From: Escherichia coli O157 typing phage 15
Strand: one strand, 5' to 3'
Sequence record: KP869113
DNA length: 64,000 nt
Part shown: in pieces, positions 42 to 18,295 of the stretch
How the letters are laid out: each line of letters opens with the position of its first letter
Numbering within the stretch: the first letter of the stretch is position 1
Notes under the pieces: generated by a model
What the model saw: the letters and a program-made list of their open reading frames with translations, nothing else
Database searches by the model: none
What the model was told of the DNA's origin: nothing
Position numbers and translations under genes: made by a program

Positions 42-117
42 TGGGGTGACCTACGGGATTTGAACCCGTATAGACCATGTTCACAGCATGGGTCATTACC
101 ATTTATGATAAGGCCAC
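42..117 (-). tRNA. tRNA-His (anticodon GTG), CCA encoded
   Basis: T-arm acggg/atttgaa/cccgt on plus strand; anticodon stem ccatg/catgg with loop ttcacag (codon CAC); acceptor 7 bp. Confidence 0.65.
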
Positions 118-148
118 ATTTAAGGACTCTCGTAAGAATCCTTAGAAG

Positions 149-224
149 TGGCAGCGGCATAAGGATTTGAACCTTAATAGGACAGCTTCAGAGACTGCTG
201 CATTGCCAGTTATGCTATACCGCT
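149..224 (-). tRNA. tRNA-Gln (anticodon CTG), CCA encoded
   Basis: T-arm taagg/atttgaa/cctta; anticodon loop ttcagag (codon CAG); acceptor agcggta/tgccgct. Confidence 0.6.
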
Positions 225-229
225 AAATT

Positions 230-309
230 TGGTACTCCATATCGGATTCGAACCGATACATAACACAGATTTTAAGTCTGGCCTCTCTGCCAATTGGAGT
301 AATGGAGCA
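230..309 (-). tRNA. tRNA with anticodon TAA (Leu-type anticodon, short variable arm)
   Basis: T-arm atcgg/attcgaa/ccgat; anticodon stem caga/tctg with loop ttttaag (codon TTA); CCA encoded; D-arm short. Confidence 0.5.
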
Positions 310-310
310 T

Positions 311-386
311 TGGCGGGGGATGTTGGAATTGAACCAACTTCTTCGATTTCAAAGACCGAGGTTTTAACCTTGTAAACTAATCCCCT
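311..386 (-). tRNA. tRNA-Gln (anticodon TTG), CCA encoded
   Basis: T-arm gttgg/aattgaa/ccaac; anticodon loop ttcaaag (codon CAA); D-arm gttt/aaac. Confidence 0.55.
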
Positions 387-394
387 TTAAATCT

Positions 395-721
395 TTACTT
401 TCTTAGTGGATGAATAAAGAATGCCAACATAACTCTTTCCCTTGAAAATGCTCTTTCTTCTGGGACAACACTTTTAAGTTTCCACCCAACATAAATTCTC
501 CAGTAAAATTGTTTACCAAAGATTTTGATTGACGGCACAAAAGCGAATAATCCCCAAGCATTACTGTTCCACATTAGGAGATAACCAGTCTGATTATCTT
601 CAGGGTTAGAACTTACGTTGATATTACCTTTCCACTTAGTAACATCTTTTACATCTCTTCCTAATACATGGTAAGAGAAGTTATAAGCTTTGTTTCTCCA
701 GAGCCATCCAACTCTCTGCAT
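395..721 (-). CDS. hypothetical protein (N-terminus uncertain, abuts assembly gap)
   Basis: 108-aa ORF immediately 5' of the tRNA block; Trp/Tyr-rich; the N run starts 9 nt upstream of the listed start. Confidence 0.3.
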   Translation of the reverse strand: MQRVGWLWRNKAYNFSYHVLGRDVKDVTKWKGNINVSSNPEDNQTGYLLMWNSNAWGLFAFVPSIKIFGKQFYWRIYVGWKLKSVVPEERAFSRERVMLAFFIHPLRK

Positions 722-730
722 GTAGACACC

Positions 731-1450
731 NNNNNNNNNNNNNNNNNNNNNNNNNNNNNNNNNNNNNNNNNNNNNNNNNNNNNNNNNNNNNNNNNNNNNN
801 NNNNNNNNNNNNNNNNNNNNNNNNNNNNNNNNNNNNNNNNNNNNNNNNNNNNNNNNNNNNNNNNNNNNNNNNNNNNNNNNNNNNNNNNNNNNNNNNNNNN
901 NNNNNNNNNNNNNNNNNNNNNNNNNNNNNNNNNNNNNNNNNNNNNNNNNNNNNNNNNNNNNNNNNNNNNNNNNNNNNNNNNNNNNNNNNNNNNNNNNNNN
1001 NNNNNNNNNNNNNNNNNNNNNNNNNNNNNNNNNNNNNNNNNNNNNNNNNNNNNNNNNNNNNNNNNNNNNNNNNNNNNNNNNNNNNNNNNNNNNNNNNNNN
1101 NNNNNNNNNNNNNNNNNNNNNNNNNNNNNNNNNNNNNNNNNNNNNNNNNNNNNNNNNNNNNNNNNNNNNNNNNNNNNNNNNNNNNNNNNNNNNNNNNNNN
1201 NNNNNNNNNNNNNNNNNNNNNNNNNNNNNNNNNNNNNNNNNNNNNNNNNNNNNNNNNNNNNNNNNNNNNNNNNNNNNNNNNNNNNNNNNNNNNNNNNNNN
1301 NNNNNNNNNNNNNNNNNNNNNNNNNNNNNNNNNNNNNNNNNNNNNNNNNNNNNNNNNNNNNNNNNNNNNNNNNNNNNNNNNNNNNNNNNNNNNNNNNNNN
1401 NNNNNNNNNNNNNNNNNNNNNNNNNNNNNNNNNNNNNNNNNNNNNNNNNN
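731..1450. other. assembly gap (720 N)
   Basis: run of n; the X-filled ORFs across it are artefacts. Confidence 0.99.
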
Positions 1451-1520
1451 CTCACTAAAGGACTTGAACCTTTTTCTTCATCTTGTAAGGGTGATGTTTT
1501 ACCATATAAACTAAGCGAGT
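1451..1520 (-). tRNA. tRNA-Val (anticodon TAC), 3' end lost in gap
   Basis: T-arm aaagg/acttgaa/ccttt at 1457-1473; anticodon loop ttgtaag (codon GTA); D-arm gttt/aaac; acceptor agcgagt. Confidence 0.5.
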
Positions 1521-1616
1521 ATGAAAGAGGTCTGAAGTTGTGCCGCTAACTCAACTTCGTGGAATTTGTTACGGTCTTCAGTTGACTCAAAGCGGTCTTT
1601 CACTTGACCTCTGAAT

Positions 1617-1692
1617 TGGTGCTCCCACAAGGACTCGAACCCTGATAAGTTGCTTACAAGGCAACCGTAATAACCAATTATACGATAGGAGC
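1617..1692 (-). tRNA. tRNA-Thr (anticodon TGT), CCA encoded
   Basis: T-arm caagg/actcgaa/ccctg; anticodon stem gttgc/gcaac, loop ttacaag (codon ACA). Confidence 0.65.
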
Positions 1693-1699
1693 ATTAATT

Positions 1700-1774
1700 T
1701 GGAGCATCCAGAGGGAATCGAACCCTCAACCTCAGTTTGGAAGACTGTAATTTTCCCGTTTAAACTATGGATGC
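1700..1774 (-). tRNA. tRNA-Gly (anticodon TCC), CCA encoded
   Basis: T-arm gaggg/aatcgaa/ccctc; anticodon loop ttggaag (codon GGA); acceptor gcatcca/tggatgc perfect. Confidence 0.65.
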
Positions 1775-1780
1775 ACTAAT

Positions 1781-1856
1781 TGGTGGAGTCACTGAGAATT
1801 GAACTCAGTTCCCAAGTTTGCAAAACTCGAATTTTAACCATATAAACTATGACCCC
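1781..1856 (-). tRNA. tRNA-Ala (anticodon TGC), CCA encoded
   Basis: T-arm ctgag/aattgaa/ctcag; anticodon loop ttgcaaa (codon GCA). Confidence 0.6.
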
Positions 1857-1862
1857 ATTGTT

Positions 1863-1938
1863 TGGTACAGGTGGAGGGAATTGAACCCATCGTCTTACTG
1901 ATTAAGAGTCAGCCGCATAACCATTTTGCTACACCTGC
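1863..1938 (-). tRNA. tRNA-Lys (anticodon CTT), CCA encoded
   Basis: T-loop aattgaa flanked by ggg/ccc; anticodon stem actga/tcagc, loop ttaagag (codon AAG). Confidence 0.55.
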
Positions 1939-1945
1939 ATTAATT

Positions 1946-2022
1946 TGGTACACCTAGAGAGATTCGAACTCACACTGAGCAGATTCTAAGTCTGCTGCCT
2001 CTACCAGTTGGGCTATAGGTGC
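1946..2022 (-). tRNA. tRNA with anticodon TAG (Leu-type anticodon, short variable arm)
   Basis: T-loop attcgaa; perfect anticodon stem gcaga/tctgc with loop ttctaag (codon CTA); D-arm gcct/gggc; 77 nt including CCA. Confidence 0.55.
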
Positions 2023-2103
2023 ATTAAATCTTTTTAGAGAACTTCTAAGAACCTGAGCAACAAGGTTCCACAACAAGCGACTAATAACCTTAGAAGCCCT
2101 CTA

Positions 2104-2126
2104 AAAAGACCTAAATAGGTCTTTGC
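2104..2126 (-). terminator. rho-independent terminator-like hairpin
   Basis: aaagacc-taaatag-ggtcttt perfect 7-bp stem; on the minus strand the stem is followed by a T run. Confidence 0.4.
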
Positions 2127-2280
2127 ATAGTCTTGTTTAATCCGGTGACTAGAACCTTTGGAGAGCTTGATATTATCTCTTCTCCGTGACACCTACTAGG
2201 TGTTTTATCAGTGTGTACAACAATACACGCGGTATACCAAAGCAACATCCGAATGAAGCTTGGCTTTAAATCTTATTAGG

Positions 2281-2368
2281 CGGTAAGTAAAGGAGTCGAA
2301 CCCTCACCGTATCTCTACAGTGGCAACTGTTTTCAAGACAGTTTGGCTACCATTAGCCGCTACCTACC
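2281..2368 (-). tRNA. tRNA-Ser (anticodon TGA), class II long variable arm, no CCA
   Basis: T-loop agtcgaa; anticodon stem actgt/acagt with loop tttcaag (codon TCA); 88 nt; acceptor ggtaggt/acttacc. Confidence 0.6.
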
Positions 2369-2381
2369 CCTAATAAGACTG

Positions 2382-2786
2382 CTAAATACTTAACAGTCCT
2401 GCATGAACTTTCCTATGACAGTTTGAGCAAAGCACAACACACTTACGAACTTCACGCTTAATAGTTCCCCTAGAGTAAGTCTTAAGATTGCTTGGAGCAA
2501 AATCTTTCTCTTTAGGGTCTAAGTGATGAAAATCTAAAGCTACTGGCTCGGATTCACCACATATTCTGCATTTGCAAAACTTTTTATATCTACTAAGGAA
2601 CTCTCTGTTTCTCTTTTTGTCATATTTTGCTCTAACTTTCCTTTTTGCTTTATAAGTAGGGTCTTCTTTGTATCTCTTTGCTGAGTACTTAGCTTTACAA
2701 TCTTTGCAAGCAGACTGATAGCCATTCCCTCTTTTATGAAAGCAACTTAAAGGCTTCTCTTGAGAACATTTTCTACAAAGTTTCAT
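2382..2786 (-). CDS. HNH homing endonuclease
   Basis: 134-aa ORF; Cys-rich zinc-binding N-terminus and C-terminal DFHHLDP...CVVLCSNCHRKVH HNH motif; sits between tRNA genes. Confidence 0.75.
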   Translation of the reverse strand: MKLCRKCSQEKPLSCFHKRGNGYQSACKDCKAKYSAKRYKEDPTYKAKRKVRAKYDKKRNREFLSRYKKFCKCRICGESEPVALDFHHLDPKEKDFAPSNLKTYSRGTIKREVRKCVVLCSNCHRKVHAGLLSI

Positions 2787-2800
2787 ACAAGCACCTTTTC

Positions 2801-2871
2801 TGGCAGGGGTGTAGAGATTCGAACTCTAATCAAGAATTTTGGAGACTCTATTGCTGCCATAGCTCACCCCT
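2801..2871 (-). tRNA. tRNA-Trp (anticodon CCA), CCA encoded, short D-arm
   Basis: T-arm tagag/attcgaa/ctcta; anticodon loop tttggag (codon TGG); acceptor aggggtg/cacccct perfect. Confidence 0.55.
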
Positions 2872-3019
2872 ATTAAAACTATAATTCGAAGCTTACCGTA
2901 TTATCTCAACACTGTAAAGCCCCTTCTCAGATTATTTACATGTTCTGGAAAACATGAGATACAGACCACCTCCCTACAGGAAGACCCGCTTAGGTCGTCT
3001 AAGTAATCTGCTAACTAAT

Positions 3020-3096
3020 TGGCACACCCTACAGGATTCGAACCTGTAACTAACGATTTAGAAGACCGTTGCTCTATCCAATTGAACTAAGGGTGC
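3020..3096 (-). tRNA. tRNA-Arg (anticodon TCT), CCA encoded
   Basis: T-arm acagg/attcgaa/cctgt; anticodon loop ttagaag (codon AGA). Confidence 0.65.
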
Positions 3097-3361
3097 ATTA
3101 ACATTTTAAAGGGTACTCATTGCATTTAAGCCAAGCCCCATAAGGGATACCCTTTAGAATGTTGCCCACCTTATTAATCATACCGTGGGCTAGTACGCCA
3201 AATTCTTTGATGAGGGATTGGAAGACCTCACTGGTGTTTAGCCTATCAAGCTACTGCCAGAAAAACATTGTCGTTTGCATTTATTTTAAATTTGCAAAAT
3301 AGACGCTACGCAACGAAAACTAAGGTTACTATAAAGTAGTCACATCTCAATGTCAACAACT

Positions 3362-3437
3362 TTATTGAAATTGGTACTGGTAGGTGGAATCGAACCACCG
3401 ATGTTCCCTTATCAGGGGAGTGTTATAACCTTCTTAA
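3362..3437 (-). tRNA. tRNA-Ile (anticodon GAT), CCA encoded
   Basis: T-arm ggtgg/aatcgaa/ccacc; anticodon loop ttatcag (codon ATC). Confidence 0.6.
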
Positions 3438-3438
3438 C

Positions 3439-3515
3439 TATACCAGCTTGGAGGTTCAGATGGGAATCGAACCCACATTCATAGGGCTTATGAGACCCTT
3501 GCATTACCTTATCTG
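3439..3515 (-). tRNA. tRNA-Met (anticodon CAT), CCA encoded
   Basis: T-loop aatcgaa; anticodon stem agggc/accct, loop ttatgag (codon ATG); acceptor ggttcag/ctgaacc perfect. Confidence 0.6.
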
Positions 3516-3603
3516 CGACTGAACCAGAATAAGTACCCTAGTTAGAGAAACTGTTGAGTGGGTGTTTCCAGCCGCGCAGGTGTTTCTTAGTTAAGGGTGA
3601 ATT

Positions 3604-3679
3604 TGGTAGAAGTGGAGGGATTCGAACCCATCGCCTGTCAGATTAAAAGTCTGCCGCATCACCATTCTGCTACACTTCC
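3604..3679 (-). tRNA. tRNA-Lys (anticodon TTT), CCA encoded
   Basis: T-arm almost identical to the Lys-CTT gene; anticodon loop ttaaaag (codon AAA). Confidence 0.55.
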
Positions 3680-3684
3680 ATTAA

Positions 3685-3836
3685 ATTATCTTTGTAGATA
3701 AGCTACCCAGACTTGCTTAAGGTCTGTAGCGATGTGCCTTTTTGGGTTTAAATCTAGAATTTACCCTTTCACCCTTTGTGGTCGCATACTCACAGGTAAG
3801 CTTAATAACTTATCTACAAAGATAATTACCAGACCG
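3685..3836. repeat. perfect 18-bp inverted repeat (attatctttgtagataag / cttatctacaaagataat) enclosing about 116 nt
   Basis: read directly from sequence; arms at 3685-3702 and 3819-3836. Confidence 0.8.
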
Positions 3837-3964
3837 TTGTTTATCATCTTAAGTGCTACCATTACACCAACTCGACATCTGCCGAGTGAAGGAATCGAAC
3901 CTTCGCCTTTTCTTTACCGGAGAAATAGATTGTTTAAGTTTTGCTGTAAACGGTCTTCTGTAAA
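3837..3964 (-). ncRNA. structured RNA, family copy 1 (closing helix agaccgtt/aacggtct) with embedded tRNA-like T-arm
   Basis: conserved 5' box ttaccagacc and 3' box ttgctgtaaacggtcttctg; inside it gaagg/aatcgaa/ccttc T-arm plus gtg-taatggtag-cac D-arm-like hairpin, but no pairable acceptor 5' strand. Confidence 0.45.
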
Positions 3965-3971
3965 TTTGTTG

Positions 3972-4046
3972 AGCCAGACCAAGTTTTAAATTTTTCAAAA
4001 TTAAATTGGCTTGAAATTTTAAATAACTTGCTGTATTTGGTCTTCT
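3972..4046 (-). ncRNA. structured RNA, family copy 2 (closing helix agaccaa/ttggtct)
   Basis: same boxes (gccagaccaag ... ttgctgtatttggtcttctg); compensatory base changes in the helix relative to copy 1. Confidence 0.4.
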
Positions 4047-4106
4047 GCTCCTTTAAAGAATACTCGTAAGAACCCTTTAAGGGAGGGGCTAAATAGCCCT
4101 CTCAAA

Positions 4107-4184
4107 ATTGGCGGTTACGAAGGGATTTGAACCCTCATCATCTCCCGTGACAGGGGAGTATTTTAACCAAATTAAACTACATAA
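4107..4184 (-). tRNA. tRNA-Asp (anticodon GTC), CCA encoded
   Basis: T-loop atttgaa; perfect anticodon stem ctccc/gggag, loop gtgacag (codon GAC). Confidence 0.65.
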
Positions 4185-4189
4185 CCTTT

Positions 4190-4277
4190 ATTGGTGTGCC
4201 GTGTAGGAGTCGAACCTACCGAGTCTCAATGACAAGGGATTTACAGTCCCCACCGCTACCATCTACGGGATAACGAC
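4190..4277 (-). tRNA. tRNA-Tyr (anticodon GTA), class II long variable arm, CCA encoded
   Basis: T-arm gtagg/agtcgaa/cctac; anticodon stem ggga/tccc, loop tttacag (codon TAC); 88 nt. Confidence 0.6.
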
Positions 4278-4346
4278 ACATTTAATTTCTATTCAGGCTA
4301 AGGACTTGTACCTTACAAATCGGTGAGCAATCGCTTCTCTCCTAAA

Positions 4347-4423
4347 TTTGGCGGTTAGTCAGGGATTCGAACCCTGTGCCATTCGCTTAACAGGCGACCG
4401 CACATACCTTATGTGCTTCCTAA
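4347..4423 (-). tRNA. tRNA-Asn (anticodon GTT), CCA encoded
   Basis: T-arm caggg/attcgaa/ccctg; anticodon loop ttaacag (codon AAC). Confidence 0.6.
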
Positions 4424-4433
4424 CCATGTTTAG

Positions 4434-4503
4434 TATTACCAGACCGTATATTTCAATTTTTTCCGCTAAAAATTTAATAAATATTGCTGTAAACGGTCTT
4501 CTG
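4434..4503 (-). ncRNA. structured RNA, family copy 3 (closing helix agaccgt/acggtct, AT-rich loop)
   Basis: ttaccagaccgt ... ttgctgtaaacggtcttctg; no tRNA-like insert. Confidence 0.4.
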
Positions 4504-4509
4504 TAAATT

Positions 4510-4586
4510 TGGAGGCGGGTGCAGGAGTCGAACCTGCCGATACCATGCTAATGAGACATGTGAGACGCCCTTTCTCTATACCCGCA
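4510..4586 (-). tRNA. second CAT-anticodon tRNA (Met, fMet or Ile-lysidine type), CCA encoded
   Basis: T-arm gcagg/agtcgaa/cctgc; anticodon stem catgc/acatg, loop taatgag (codon ATG). Confidence 0.55.
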
Positions 4587-4605
4587 ATTCTTAATGACCA
4601 GACCA

Positions 4606-4672
4606 AATATCTTCTTTGTCCGATTAACTTTCAGATGAGTAGATTAAGTTTGCTGTAATTGGTCTTCTGTCA
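4606..4672 (-). ncRNA. structured RNA, family copy 4 (closing helix agaccaa/ttggtct)
   Basis: gaccagaccaaat ... ttgctgtaattggtcttctg; covaries with copies 1 and 3. Confidence 0.4.
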
Positions 4673-4677
4673 AAACT

Positions 4678-4755
4678 GGCGTTCCAGAAGGGATTTGAAC
4701 CCTCAAATATCCACTTTGAAAGAGTGGTGACTTTACCATTTTGTCTACTGGAACA
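4678..4755 (-). tRNA. tRNA-Glu (anticodon TTC), CCA encoded
   Basis: T-loop atttgaa; perfect anticodon stem ccact/agtgg, loop ttgaaag (codon GAA); acceptor gttccag/ctggaac perfect. Confidence 0.65.
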
Positions 4756-4762
4756 TTAATTT

Positions 4763-4842
4763 GGTCTCCGTTGAAGGATTTGAACCCTCGACCCCTTGCT
4801 CCCAAAGCAAGTGCTGCTAAACCAGACTGAGCTAAACGGAGA
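4763..4842 (-). tRNA. tRNA-Pro (anticodon TGG), CCA encoded
   Basis: T-loop atttgaa; perfect anticodon stem cttgc/gcaag, loop tcccaaa (codon CCA); acceptor ctccgtt/aacggag perfect. Confidence 0.65.
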
Positions 4843-5006
4843 TAAACTTTTCAAACTTTATGTAACCACTTTAACATTATTTTTTAGTGGTTGTCAAGAA
4901 CTTTTTTAAAATATTTTTCAGCATCTTAGAAAAGCTCTCATTTCGTTTCTATGTAGAACATATTAAAGGGTATTAAACACATTGTCAATACCCTTTTTAA
5001 AACTTT

Positions 5007-6422
5007 TTACCAGATATAACGGTCAATCATTACTGCTTTGAGCATTACACTGATTGGGTCAAACTTCTCACCACCAAGCAGAGCTTTTAAAGTGGCTGGA
5101 GAGAACCCTGATACCATTGCTACACCGTTATCCTTAACAGATACTTCGCAAGTACCATTACGGTTTGCTAAGTACCAGAATACCAGTTGTGGCATCTCAT
5201 ATCCAGCTTTTTTGTACTTACTCTGAATTGCTTCAAAGTTTGTACGACCGTTAGCTCCATCAACCTGATTAAACTCCATATCGGAGAAGATGATAAGCTT
5301 ACTTGGCATATCTTTCTGAGTCAAGTTGTTTCTTTTACCTGTTTCAAGAATGCGGTCAAAAGCTGCTTGTAAGTTAGTTGAGCCATATTCAACGTGTCGC
5401 ATCACCTGACGATGACGGTTTCGTAAATCACCACTCAGTTCGATGAAGTGAGGGTTTGTTGAATAAACCATCAACTCATTCTTAAAGCAACCTGTATTGC
5501 GTTCTGCTACATACAAGGCAAGTGATACACCAATATCCAGAGCAGTAATGGAGCCAAAATTCACCCAAGACATTGAACTTGATACATCAGACATACACAA
5601 GATGTTTTCACCTTCTGCCATCCAGTTTGGTAGTGCTTTCCACTGCTCATTAGCAACATCTGCATTACCATACTTGACAGATTTAATCACATCGTATGGG
5701 TAAACAGCACCAGCGTTAATCTTAGTCTCACCTTTTGATAAGGACTCGATGTAAGCTTTGTAACGCTCTCCATCTTTACGGTTAAACAGTTTTTGGTAAC
5801 GTGCAGCAGCAAGTGAAGGAATCTTACTGTAGTCAATCTTACCAAACTCATTAGCAGAGATTTTTTGCTCAACTGTATCAGATAGTGCAGACAACAGTGT
5901 GCGGTACTCTTTCTCACTCAAGTTGGCAAACTTGCAGAAACGTTTTACAAACTGCTTATGACGTGGTTTGACTCGTGGTAACCACTTAGCCGCCAAACCT
6001 GCTGTTGCAGGGTCTAGTAATGCTGCTTCTAAATGTTTGAAGGCATCTGTCTCGAAACGAGTACCTACGAAGATTTTGAAGTCATCAAAACGACCAAGTT
6101 CTGCAATCTTATCCATAATGCGAAGAACCTGCGTAGACTCTAAAACTTTGTCTTCAATCGCTTGAAGTAAAACAGCTCTGAAGGCTTTACGCTCACCCAT
6201 ACCTTCTCGTACATCTCGCATATGCAGTAAAATACGAACTGCAACATCAACATCCTCACGCAAAGCTTTGTAGAACAGGTCTGGTAAGATTTCTACATTG
6301 CTACGGCTTGAACCAGCAGCTTTGTAAAAGTCTACAAGAGCAGACATTGATGAAGTATGGTTTACAGCACCATTTTCAGTTCGACCTGCATGAAGGTGCG
6401 CATGTTTAAATAACTCGCTCAT
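5007..6422 (-). CDS. vWA (MIDAS) domain protein with N-terminal alpha-helical domain; Ro60/TROVE-like or DUF2828-like architecture
   Basis: 471-aa ORF; C-terminal ILCMSDVSSSMSW (DxSxS MIDAS) ... LIIFSDMEF typical of vWA fold; first gene downstream of the tRNA/ncRNA block. Confidence 0.6.
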   Translation of the reverse strand: MSELFKHAHLHAGRTENGAVNHTSSMSALVDFYKAAGSSRSNVEILPDLFYKALREDVDVAVRILLHMRDVREGMGERKAFRAVLLQAIEDKVLESTQVLRIMDKIAELGRFDDFKIFVGTRFETDAFKHLEAALLDPATAGLAAKWLPRVKPRHKQFVKRFCKFANLSEKEYRTLLSALSDTVEQKISANEFGKIDYSKIPSLAAARYQKLFNRKDGERYKAYIESLSKGETKINAGAVYPYDVIKSVKYGNADVANEQWKALPNWMAEGENILCMSDVSSSMSWVNFGSITALDIGVSLALYVAERNTGCFKNELMVYSTNPHFIELSGDLRNRHRQVMRHVEYGSTNLQAAFDRILETGKRNNLTQKDMPSKLIIFSDMEFNQVDGANGRTNFEAIQSKYKKAGYEMPQLVFWYLANRNGTCEVSVKDNGVAMVSGFSPATLKALLGGEKFDPISVMLKAVMIDRYIW

Positions 6423-6503
6423 ATTTTACTCTCTTCTCTCATTTGTTGTTTGATGTGACAGACTTTAGAGCAACTTTATAGAGTCTGTCAACATCTTTTA
6501 AAA

Positions 6504-6875
6504 TTATTTTTTAAGGGTTGCAACAGCAGAGAACGTTGGTTTGTTATCTGTCTGAGACTGACCACCGTTATCAGGAGTCTTCTTAGTGTCTGCTGCAATT
6601 GCTTTCATCTCACCTGCTGAGTGGGTCATGATAGTTTTACCGACTTCAATCATGCTCTTGATGGTTACATCGTCTGTGTTTAACCCGAACTCTGCAAGCT
6701 TAGCAGCGTCCCTTGTAACAATCGCCTCAAACAACTTTGCAGCAAACTCAGCAGAATTATCAATGGTCAGTTGAGCTTTTACAAGTGAGCTTTTGTTACG
6801 AGAGCCTTTTGGTCTTCCAGATGGGTTTCCAGACTGGCCTTTTTTAAACTGGCCTTTGTTTGTTCTGTTTTTCAT
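6504..6875 (-). CDS. hypothetical protein with GNPxGRPKG basic motif
   Basis: 123-aa ORF; N-terminal KGQFKKGQSGNPSGRPKGSRNK motif common in phage proteins. Confidence 0.5.
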   Translation of the reverse strand: MKNRTNKGQFKKGQSGNPSGRPKGSRNKSSLVKAQLTIDNSAEFAAKLFEAIVTRDAAKLAEFGLNTDDVTIKSMIEVGKTIMTHSAGEMKAIAADTKKTPDNGGQSQTDNKPTFSAVATLKK

Positions 6876-17752: not shown

Positions 17753-18295
17753 TTAGAAAAAGACCTTTAAATCACTCTCTACAATGTTTTCTGTCAGTGT
17801 ATCCATGATGTCACAAAAAACCTGAATACTGTCGGATTGTTGGATACTTTTAGCAAGTAGCTCCAATGTTTCATCAAGATAATTTAAATTTGGGTTATCC
17901 AGTGAAGGGAGACAAAAAGGTGAATACATAGCGTTGAACTCTGTTGTATAGACCTTTTTAATCCAATTTACATCAAAGTACTCTGTAAAGCTTGCTATAT
18001 TTGACATGTTATCACAAGAATAATCATCATTTAGCTCATCCTCTGGAATGTCAAGTTCTAAGATAACAATATTTTGAGTTTTCATCTGAAAAGCTGCCGT
18101 GATAGTGGCATTTCCTAGAGCTTGCTGGATACCTTCCGATGCTATCTCTTCCTCATCATCACCATAGAGTTTATTTTCTGGGTACACGTAAAAATTGCCG
18201 TCCATATCCGAACAATTCCATACACCTGATGGTTTATCACCGTTATTAATCAGGTTGATAAAGTTTTCTTGAGTAGTACCGTGAAAGCATTTCAT
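17753..18295 (-). CDS. hypothetical protein
   Basis: 180-aa ORF behind family-B cassette. Confidence 0.5.
   Translation of the reverse strand: MKCFHGTTQENFINLINNGDKPSGVWNCSDMDGNFYVYPENKLYGDDEEEIASEGIQQALGNATITAAFQMKTQNIVILELDIPEDELNDDYSCDNMSNIASFTEYFDVNWIKKVYTTEFNAMYSPFCLPSLDNPNLNYLDETLELLAKSIQQSDSIQVFCDIMDTLTENIVESDLKVFF

Follow-up and report, generated by a model that had tools for sequence, protein, structure and literature searches.

A predicted Ro60-fold protein of the DUF2828 family and its candidate RNA partners beside the tRNA array of Escherichia coli O157 typing phage 15

Introduction

Does the tRNA region of Escherichia coli O157 typing phage 15 encode a ribonucleoprotein of the kind formed by Ro60 and Y RNAs? 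The question is raised by a 64,000-nucleotide stretch of this phage (sequence record KP869113; the whole stretch is termed the window below), in which the minus strand carries small structured RNA elements in the gaps of a tRNA array and, directly upstream of the array, an open reading frame (ORF) for a 471-amino-acid (aa) protein (5007-6422). A first-pass annotation, made from the sequence alone, had noted here a family of hairpins, one of them tRNA-like, next to a protein with an alpha-helical N-terminal part and a C-terminal von Willebrand factor A (vWA) domain containing the MIDAS (metal ion-dependent adhesion site) motif. It had suggested a Ro60-like module and named a DUF2828-type protein as the alternative.

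In animal Y RNAs, the Ro60-binding site is a bulged GGUCCGA helix. In bacterial YrlA RNA, a T arm, an acceptor hairpin and a D arm follow one another inside a terminal stem (Chen et al. 2014, PMC4201824). The analysis described here favours the view, at a probability of roughly 0.6, that this part of the phage genome specifies its own form of a Ro60/Y-RNA-type ribonucleoprotein; in this form, the 471-aa protein would have the four RNAs of the window as its cognate ligands.

A Ro60 fold in the DUF2828 family

By sequence, the 471-aa protein matches the Pfam families DUF7788 (PF25043; 148.9 bits, cut-off 27.1) and DUF2828 (PF11443; 102.2 bits, cut-off 29), and both domains are matched by all 38 homologues in an alignment with identities down to 40% (A1). 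PHROGs assigns the protein to family 850, 'RNA-binding protein'. The architecture first described is borne out by an AlphaFold2 model (pLDDT 89, pTM 0.88), in which an all-helical N-terminal part is followed by an alpha/beta vWA domain at the C-terminus. Moreover, the MIDAS residues (DxSxS...T...D; D279, S281, S283, T349 and D381) are invariant in A1, and the helical N-terminal part contains many invariant basic and aromatic residues (Arg, Lys and Trp).

A Foldseek search with the model supports the Ro60-like architecture: the top 11 matches are all Ro60/TROVE proteins, with E about 1e-8 and TM-scores up to 0.67. Modelled in this way, the 471-aa protein is a Ro60-fold ring of the DUF2828/DUF7788 family, its helical repeats closed by a C-terminal vWA domain with an intact MIDAS. 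The two identities that had been set against each other both apply, DUF2828 by sequence and Ro60 by fold, and what falls away is their mutual exclusion.

Compared with metazoan Ro60 (PDB 1YVP and 2I91) and the Ro60 of Thermus phage phiLo (9L5Y, PMC12135203), the phage protein has the same fold, domain order and MIDAS motif; however, sequence identity is 11-17%, there is no sequence-level match, and the RNA partners have no motif in common. The protein is also about 60 residues shorter than vertebrate Ro60. The relationship to Ro60 is visible by fold comparison only. The Pfam vWA_Ro60 model gives a weak match in 7 of the 38 homologues, and some plant members of the family are labelled 'TROVE domain-containing' in UniRef.

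Homologues are plentiful in large phages of Vibrio and Yersinia and in many metagenomic viruses. A query with a plant member retrieved 6,378 cluster representatives at E<=0.001 from phages, bacteria, plants and protists, and the eukaryotic members of the family include those of plants, Naegleria, an aphelid and others. Mimivirus L728 belongs to the DUF2828 family by name.

Four RNAs with a common layout

The window holds four copies of the hairpin family, each of them on the minus strand. Copy 1 (3826-3963) begins 11 nucleotides (nt) to the left of the coordinate first reported and is followed by copy 2 (3971-4050), copy 3 (4436-4506, between tRNA-Met and tRNA-Asn) and copy 4 (4595-4672, between tRNA-Glu and tRNA-Met), the last being nearest to the protein gene. 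The shared layout consists of a 4-base-pair (bp) outer stem, an AGA/G internal loop, a 7-8-bp stem (AGACCNN/NNGGUCU) and an unpaired (U)UACAGCAA motif; after the motif, each RNA has a variable middle, the 3' strand and an unpaired G. The outer stems covary between copies, reading UUAC/GUAA in copy 3, GAGC/GCUC in copy 2 and UGAC/GUCA in copy 4. The inner stem is AGACCGU/ACGGUCU in copy 3 and AGACCAA/UUGGUCU in copies 2 and 4 (7 bp in copy 4, which also has the 3' unpaired G), and the motif is UUACAGCAA in copies 3 and 4 and AUACAGCAA in copy 2, where an internal hairpin with a GCCAAUUUAAU loop is also present. A covariance model of the family, R1, scores copies 2, 3 and 4 at 45.3, 49.9 and 43.5 bits, respectively (E 2e-8 for copy 4). 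No Rfam (15) family lies above threshold for any of the four elements, the only matches being sub-threshold ones to tRNA and Dicty_Class_I_RNA. One weak promoter-like match overlaps copy 3.

In copy 1, the same terminal stem and motif enclose a permuted tRNA-like domain. Its 90-nt insert folds into a T arm (GAAGG-UUCGAUU-CCUUC, 3904-3888), an abutting 7-bp acceptor-like hairpin (ACUCGGC-AGAU-GUCGAGU, 3887-3870), two nucleotides and a D-arm-like hairpin (GUGU-AAUGGUA-GCAC, 3868-3852). The T arm and D-arm-like hairpin are those of the first-pass annotation, whose statement that no acceptor 5' strand could pair is corrected by the hairpin between them. Because the acceptor-like hairpin sits between the T and D arms, the insert can be described as a tRNA in circular permutation with a closed acceptor end: the permutation is at the anticodon position, an anticodon arm is lacking and a 4-nt loop closes the acceptor stem. 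That copy 1 is tRNA-like rather than a tRNA is confirmed by ARAGORN, which makes no tRNA call at 3826-3963, and by the Rfam tRNA model (RF00005), whose partial match of 22 bits is below the 29-bit threshold. A degenerate tRNA pseudogene was considered as an explanation for copy 1 and rejected, since the permuted layout recurs within the same stem and motif in unrelated phages.

A candidate fifth copy at 17838-17905 (plus strand), to which R1 gives a weak match (18.1 bits, E 0.05, motif UUAGCAA), was also rejected. It lies antisense inside an ORF at 17753-18295 (minus strand), an invariant motif position is broken, and the match is probably due to chance.

R1 finds the same four elements in Bas63 (Escherichia phage JohannRWettstein, MZ501086). 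In GenBank, small 'hypothetical protein' coding sequences are drawn on the opposite strand in this region of Bas63 (L085 22749-23023): bas63_0137 covers copy 2 and some of copy 1, and bas63_0138 the structured region that lies downstream of copy 1. Likewise, an 85-aa ORF of the window (3732-3989, plus strand) overlaps the RNA copies. These opposite-strand ORFs are probably spurious.

A covarying RNA family linked to the protein gene

The wider distribution of the RNAs was assessed in 80 viral loci with homologue genes (691 kb), in which the proteins are mostly only ~40% identical. The heptamer ACAGCAA is enriched there on the gene strand directly beside the gene. A strict pattern ([A/U]G plus 7 nt, then NCNGCA[A/C/U], with a terminal stem of at least 6 bp from the [A/U]G and the 3' partner followed by G) gave 123 gene-strand and 3 opposite-strand matches, spread over 54 of the 80 loci. 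The sequence logo reads (A)A, then A/U-G-R-N-U-N-N-N-U, then [A/U]-C-[A]-G-C-A-A ... C-U/A-G, with the first pair alternating between A-U and U-A. Across 41 aligned short elements, none of the seven stem pairs is lost; the second is an invariant G-C, and the other six occur as two to four pair types. Because pairing was a selection criterion, the fair tests of the stem are slide controls and strand asymmetry.

In the viral loci, R1 gives 98 gene-strand matches and 3 weak opposite-strand ones. The model was also applied to an independent set of 80 loci from bacterial genomes and metagenome-assembled genomes of many phyla (506 kb), which had not been used in its training; at E<=0.1, it found 65 matches on the gene strand and 0 on the opposite strand, in 43 of the 80 loci. 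In the best 42 bacterial elements, the stem is 99% paired, compared with 36-42% when the partner is slid, and compensatory changes occur at all 7 pairs. The RNA family is far beyond chance.

A blind scan of IMG/VR with a 14-base version of the motif yielded at least 123 matches, 24 with a proper stem and 99 without. Among the matches listed, the gene was present in the stored stretch for 10 of the 24 with a stem, always on the same strand and mostly at less than 500 nt, and for 5 of the 99 stemless ones. Loci L073 and L008 contain elements while tRNA genes are absent. The idea that the RNAs are spacers of tRNA arrays was rejected on account of such loci, and the linkage of the RNAs is to the gene, not to tRNAs. 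The tRNA array of the window (22 genes by ARAGORN, 42-4841, minus strand), in whose gaps the four RNAs are embedded, is their context and no required part of the system.

Leader copies and tRNA mimics

Elements are mostly 50-75 nt long, and about 15 elements of viral loci, at 100-130 nt, carry a T loop. In eighteen elements, the distance from the end of the element to the start codon of the protein gene is only 11-24 nt and includes a Shine-Dalgarno sequence; half of these (9/18) are bare, consisting at 32-40 nt of little beyond stem and motif. Bare leader elements ending 11-16 nt before the start codon are found at L007 3951-3990, L012 1761-1799, L013 2856-2894, L029 3947-3989, L052 3904-3947 and L075 3903-3943, among others. 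This placement is as expected for an autoregulatory operator and is the best indirect evidence for the constant module as the binding site of the protein. From their sequence context, the leader elements suggest translational autoregulation.

At the other extreme, the layout of copy 1 recurs in 12 divergent phage loci. In the 13 elements examined, the order is T arm, acceptor-like hairpin and D arm, often with a canonical UAGCUCAGUUGGUAGAGC. The acceptor and D arms of this tRNA-like subclass were aligned poorly by MAFFT/RNAalifold, so these arms rest on single-sequence folds and not on covariation. At L057 3755-3857, the usual frame of stem, motif and CUG holds an unpermuted tRNA-like body with D, anticodon-like and T arms, which ARAGORN calls as tRNA-Asn(att). 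Since this body is unpermuted, the variable module can hold a tRNA mimic in either orientation.

Relation to Rsr and YrlA

A close parallel in organization is offered by Rsr (Ro60) and the YrlA/YrlB RNAs of bacteria and mycobacteriophage (PMC4201824; RF02553). In both systems, the gene for a ring-plus-vWA protein adjoins small RNAs; these are modular, with a terminal stem and a tRNA-like domain ordered as T arm, acceptor-like hairpin and D arm; and each locus has several RNAs, not all of which contain a complete tRNA domain. YrlA of M. smegmatis, whose acceptor stem has 7 bp, undergoes cleavage and acquires CCA. The YrlA topology is present in copy 1 and in 12 elements of other phages, and the phage and bacterial elements are, as expected of Y-RNA-type RNAs, encoded beside a Ro60-type protein gene.

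Covariance models capture part of this likeness. No match to the Y RNA (RF00019) or YrlA (RF02553) model was found in the window at E<=10, whereas homologous elements elsewhere match positions 24-84 of the YrlA model below threshold (L020, 39.2 bits, E 4e-5; L079, 26.7 bits); the YrlA gathering score (69) is reached by none of the elements, the 39.2 bits of L020 being the best. The Y-RNA likeness first proposed thus stands for the topology, with T arm, acceptor hairpin and D arm in a terminal stem, and fails for the Ro-binding helix of Y RNAs and YrlA. The phage constant module is a stem with U-WCNGCAA and a 3' G, whereas YrlA has a GNCGAAN0-1G/bulged-helix Ro-binding site, and the phage protein is DUF2828/DUF7788, whereas Rsr is TROVE. 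Judged by their sequence definitions, the phage system is outside the TROVE, Y RNA and YrlA families. The best description is that of a second lineage of Ro/Y-RNA systems, which is based on DUF2828 and has a separate docking module for RNA.

Likeness to dictyostelid Class I RNAs

Class I RNAs were discovered in 2004 and are developmentally regulated; their mechanism has not been established. In work by Avesson in 2011, four proteins were reportedly pulled down with the Class I RNA DdR-21. In Kjellin 2021 (PMC7919456), Class I RNAs are described as abundant free RNAs that start with AAG, end with CUGU and have a 6-bp covarying terminal stem, with an unpaired 11-nt motif (CCUUACAGCAA type) beside the 5' strand and a variable middle thereafter; the same paper reports them absent outside Dictyostelia.

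The phage RNAs closely resemble this class (RF01414). Both are about 45-70 nt long, begin with 5' (A)AG and end with 3' CUG(U), and a G-C pair closes a covarying stem of 6-7 bp. Directly after the 5' strand, both have an unpaired ..UUACAGCAA with near-invariant C, C, A and A; then come a variable middle and, ahead of the 3' strand, a run rich in A, and T-arm-like hairpins are occasionally present. Class I motif variants that overlap the phage set are ACAGCAA, UCAGCAA, GCAGCAA, ACUGCAA and UCCGCAA (Kjellin 2021 supplement), and the phage-derived pattern is fitted by 60 of 81 Class I RNAs. The spacing from closing G to motif is, however, one nt longer in most Dictyostelia than in the phage RNAs, with phage-type spacing in 14 of 77 motif-matching Class I RNAs. 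Two Class I RNAs of the Kjellin 2021 supplement, asu_can_20 and ppa_can_99, have T-arm-like hairpins, CCUAGGUUCGAUCCCUAGC and UUGGUUCGAAUCCGAU, that parallel the tRNA-like subclass of phage RNAs.

An independent measure of this likeness comes from a second covariance model, R2, which was built from 24 Class I RNAs only and owes nothing to the phage-derived pattern. Applied to 708 kb of phage DNA, in which the window is contained in full, it gives 35 matches at E<=1, of which 34 fall on the gene strand, at already-mapped elements; the best has an E of 1.4e-4, and copies 3 (19.8 bits, E 0.026) and 4 (15.4 bits) of the window are included. On the 506 kb of bacterial loci, 17 of 18 matches are on the gene strand, with a best E of 7e-5 and scores up to 28.2 bits. 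Because a model of Class I RNAs alone recovers phage and bacterial elements, almost all on the gene strand, the signature common to the two groups is real. Scores of the Rfam model RF01414 are 15.7-21.1 bits (copy 3, 21.1, and copy 2, 16.6, both over the full length; L020, 15.7) and do not reach its gathering threshold of 41.5 bits.

Several differences remain. The eukaryotic DUSE promoter element, which lies ~60 nt upstream of Class I RNAs, is inapplicable to the phage RNAs, and Rnp1A/CIBP, an RRM protein, is the one binder of Class I RNAs known so far. A dictyostelid DUF2828 protein was not found: an approximate query retrieved plants only, a name look-up of AT-rich-looking matches in the plant-member scan gave Naegleria, a chrysophyte, a mite and green algae and no dictyostelid, and a peptide-word search of a partial D. 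discoideum proteome gave unrelated proteins only. The most amoeba-like match, a eukaryotic family member, is present on a 5.8-kb contig of 42% GC (L206; Logan SRR29340334) as an intronless gene for a 631-aa DUF2828/DUF7788 protein (P0315), which has Asn/Asp-rich runs in its N-terminal part and adjoins RING-finger and Mpv17/PMP22 genes. Its nearest named relative is in Amoeboaphelidium (39%), and no RNA element was detected on this contig.

The common signature may stem from shared ancestry, from transfer or from convergence towards a similar protein surface. A bolder proposal, possible though doubtful, is that the phage and bacterial DUF2828-linked RNAs and the Class I RNAs form one class, in which the stem/ACAGCAA/CUG module is the docking site for a DUF2828 Ro60-fold protein. 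If so, Class I RNAs would be the Y-RNA equivalents of a second Ro-like ribonucleoprotein lineage across viruses, bacteria and eukaryotes, and a twenty-year-old orphan RNA class would gain a testable molecular partner and an evolutionary origin.

An anti-defence phenotype in Bas63

The Bas63 ortholog of the 471-aa protein is bas63_0130 (gp130); the two are identical at 459 of 471 positions (97%), and the gene order is the same. Deletion of gp130 cripples plaque formation on Ppl-carrying hosts, and gp130 alone, plasmid-borne or in T7, restores plaquing on such hosts (bioRxiv 10.1101/2024.10.10.617714). The same PhageMaP preprint offers the guess that 'some tRNA genes are possibly Y RNAs' (bioRxiv 10.1101/2024.10.10.617714). 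In contrast to this suggestion, none of the four RNAs described here is an annotated tRNA; all occupy gaps between the tRNAs, and the GenBank entry leaves them without annotation. Thus, the protein fold and the anti-Ppl role are already in the preprint, in which the RNA partner is not identified; the RNA family, its breadth, the leader copies and the Class I likeness are new as far as Rfam 15 and the searched literature go. Literature searches returned only incidental plant and tardigrade mentions of DUF2828, and nothing relevant for the motif as a word.

Two related loci have contexts that fit a role in conflict. At L083 9555-14431, in a metagenomic phage, the homologue is flanked by genes for Acb1 (anti-CBASS), Gad2 (anti-Gabija) and a DNA methyltransferase, and tRNAs and elements were not detected within 8 kb. 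At L081 2055-4955, the homologue lies inside an array of 26 tRNAs, beside NAPRTase and a PRPP-synthase-like gene (NAD salvage).

For DUF2828/DUF7788, a large family of unassigned function, these results supply a fold, a candidate RNA ligand and, through Bas63 gp130, a phenotype. The candidate ligand is a covarying, unannotated RNA family with a 33-nt minimal version, and phage annotation gains small RNAs where databases draw probably spurious opposite-strand ORFs. In addition, tRNA mimicry within a protein-docking stem would have arisen in, or passed between, two Ro-like systems.

Proposed mechanism and alternative explanations

In the proposed mechanism, the four RNAs would probably be transcribed together with the tRNA array and released from the transcript by nucleases of tRNA processing. 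Their constant module comprises the 7-bp terminal stem with A-U and G-C closing pairs, the single-stranded U-[A/U]C[A]GCAA and the unpaired 3' G; it is the most likely protein-binding site because it is the sole invariant part and because, in other phages, a bare 32-40-nt version stands immediately before the ribosome-binding site of the gene. By analogy with Ro60, the stem may dock on the outer surface of the ring, with the ACAGCAA single strand at or in the cavity. The variable module would specify the partner, and the tRNA mimic of copy 1 might engage tRNA-recognising enzymes or bait host nucleases. Leader copies would provide feedback control of the protein gene, and the biological role would be counter-defence, the 97% identical gp130 of Bas63 being able to neutralise Ppl.

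A number of observations weigh against a Ro60/Y-RNA-type ribonucleoprotein. The profile check proposed in the first-pass annotation went against TROVE: none of the 38 homologues matches Pfam TROVE (PF05731) even at E<=10, all matching DUF2828 and DUF7788 instead, and phmmer and hmmsearch against the PDB did not recover Ro60 by sequence or profile. Since the fold is nevertheless that of Ro60 and no TROVE sequence profile is matched, the Ro60 fold occurs here in a separate sequence family. On the RNA side, the Ro60-binding sequence of Y RNAs and the YrlA GNCGAAN0-1G are not in the conserved positions AG...U[A/U]C[A]GCAA...CUG, and the folding z-scores of the single window RNAs are modest, from -0.8 to -2.3 (the latter in copy 2). 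Furthermore, 26 of the 80 viral and 37 of the 80 bacterial loci have no element within the fetched flanks. Lastly, because gp130 alone suffices, the phage RNAs are not needed for the anti-Ppl phenotype.

Some of these points bear on what else the elements could be. They might act mainly in cis, as leader or spacer signals that control the DUF2828 mRNA and the processing of the tRNA transcript, with autoregulation possible and no stable partners in trans. This would account for the 18 elements that end 11-24 nt before a start codon beside a Shine-Dalgarno sequence, for the constant use of the gene strand, usually within a few hundred nt, and for the position of the window elements between tRNAs, where processing signals are expected. 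It is rather unlikely, however, given that a locus can hold as many as four or five copies in tandem, some of them downstream of the stop codon, and that promoter-like matches in the window separate the gene from the elements. Moreover, a leader switch needs no elaborate variable module such as a complete tRNA mimic, and the Dictyostelium look-alikes are abundant free RNAs (Kjellin 2021).

Alternatively, the elements may function as genuine small RNAs independently of the protein, for instance as tRNA-like decoys or as baits for nucleases or other factors of the host, their linkage to the gene reflecting a shared anti-defence or tRNA neighbourhood. Such independence would agree with the ability of gp130 alone to counter Ppl, with the many homologous loci in which no elements are detectable and with the clustering of anti-defence genes, as where Acb1 and Gad2 adjoin the homologue in L083. 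What makes it unlikely is the persistence of the linkage at 33-45% protein identity, in phages and in bacteria of many phyla, with strict same-strand adjacency and also in loci without tRNAs; in addition, the invariant module does not change with the variable module, in keeping with a single binding partner shared by all. That the repeats are no functional RNAs at all, but promoters, terminators, recombination sites or small mobile repeats of tRNA regions, is very improbable. Although they are repeated, AT-rich and intergenic, with the weak promoter-like match over copy 3, compensatory changes are seen at every stem position in two independent sets, strand specificity is absolute, and an invariant single-stranded motif with embedded tRNA-like folds is untypical of DNA sites.

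Genomic context

The 2.9 kb around the protein gene and the RNAs is 97-98% identical to many Felix O1-like phages (Felixounavirus) of E. coli and Salmonella. A sigma-70-like promoter match (TTGACA-18-TAAAGT, 6462-6491, minus strand), a consensus match only, lies upstream of the protein gene and belongs to repeat family D10. Two further sigma-70-like matches of this repeat family, with TTGACA at 4988 and 4897, lie between the stop codon of the gene and the first tRNA (4868-4988, minus strand); judged by sequence, these likely mark where the tRNA/small-RNA transcript begins. A 27-nt repeated box (TTGTCAA..CTTTTTTAAAA on the plus strand) contains the TTGACA hexamers of the minus-strand promoter-like sites; it occurs at 3350-3376, 4891-4917, 4982-5008 and 6485-6511, that is, within the tRNA array, at its head and upstream of the protein gene. 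The box is probably a phage promoter class.

Other features of the array include an HNH endonuclease ORF of 134 aa (2382-2786, minus strand; PHROG 2255, E 1.5e-45) between tRNA-Ser and tRNA-Trp, which is probably a homing endonuclease. Between tRNA-Arg and tRNA-Ile, 275 nt without a gene (3097-3371, minus strand) contain a 16-bp inverted repeat (3100-3115/3148-3163), and the Rfam permuted-tmRNA model gives a weak match at 3246-3430 (29 bits, threshold 47).

Between RNA copy 1 and tRNA-Lys, a stretch of 150 nt (3681-3830, minus strand) folds into a closing stem of ~24 bp and three inner hairpins, with a minimum free energy of -48.3 against -27.6 +/- 3.4 for shuffles (z -6.1). Bas63 and five other Felixounaviruses have nearly the same sequence here, which leaves too little variation for assessing covariation in this fold. 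One inner hairpin, CAGAC-CUUAAGCAA-GUCUG-G, resembles a minimal stem/motif/G element that is one base short, and the whole structure is possibly another, fifth RNA related to the four copies, or else a site of RNase III-type processing.

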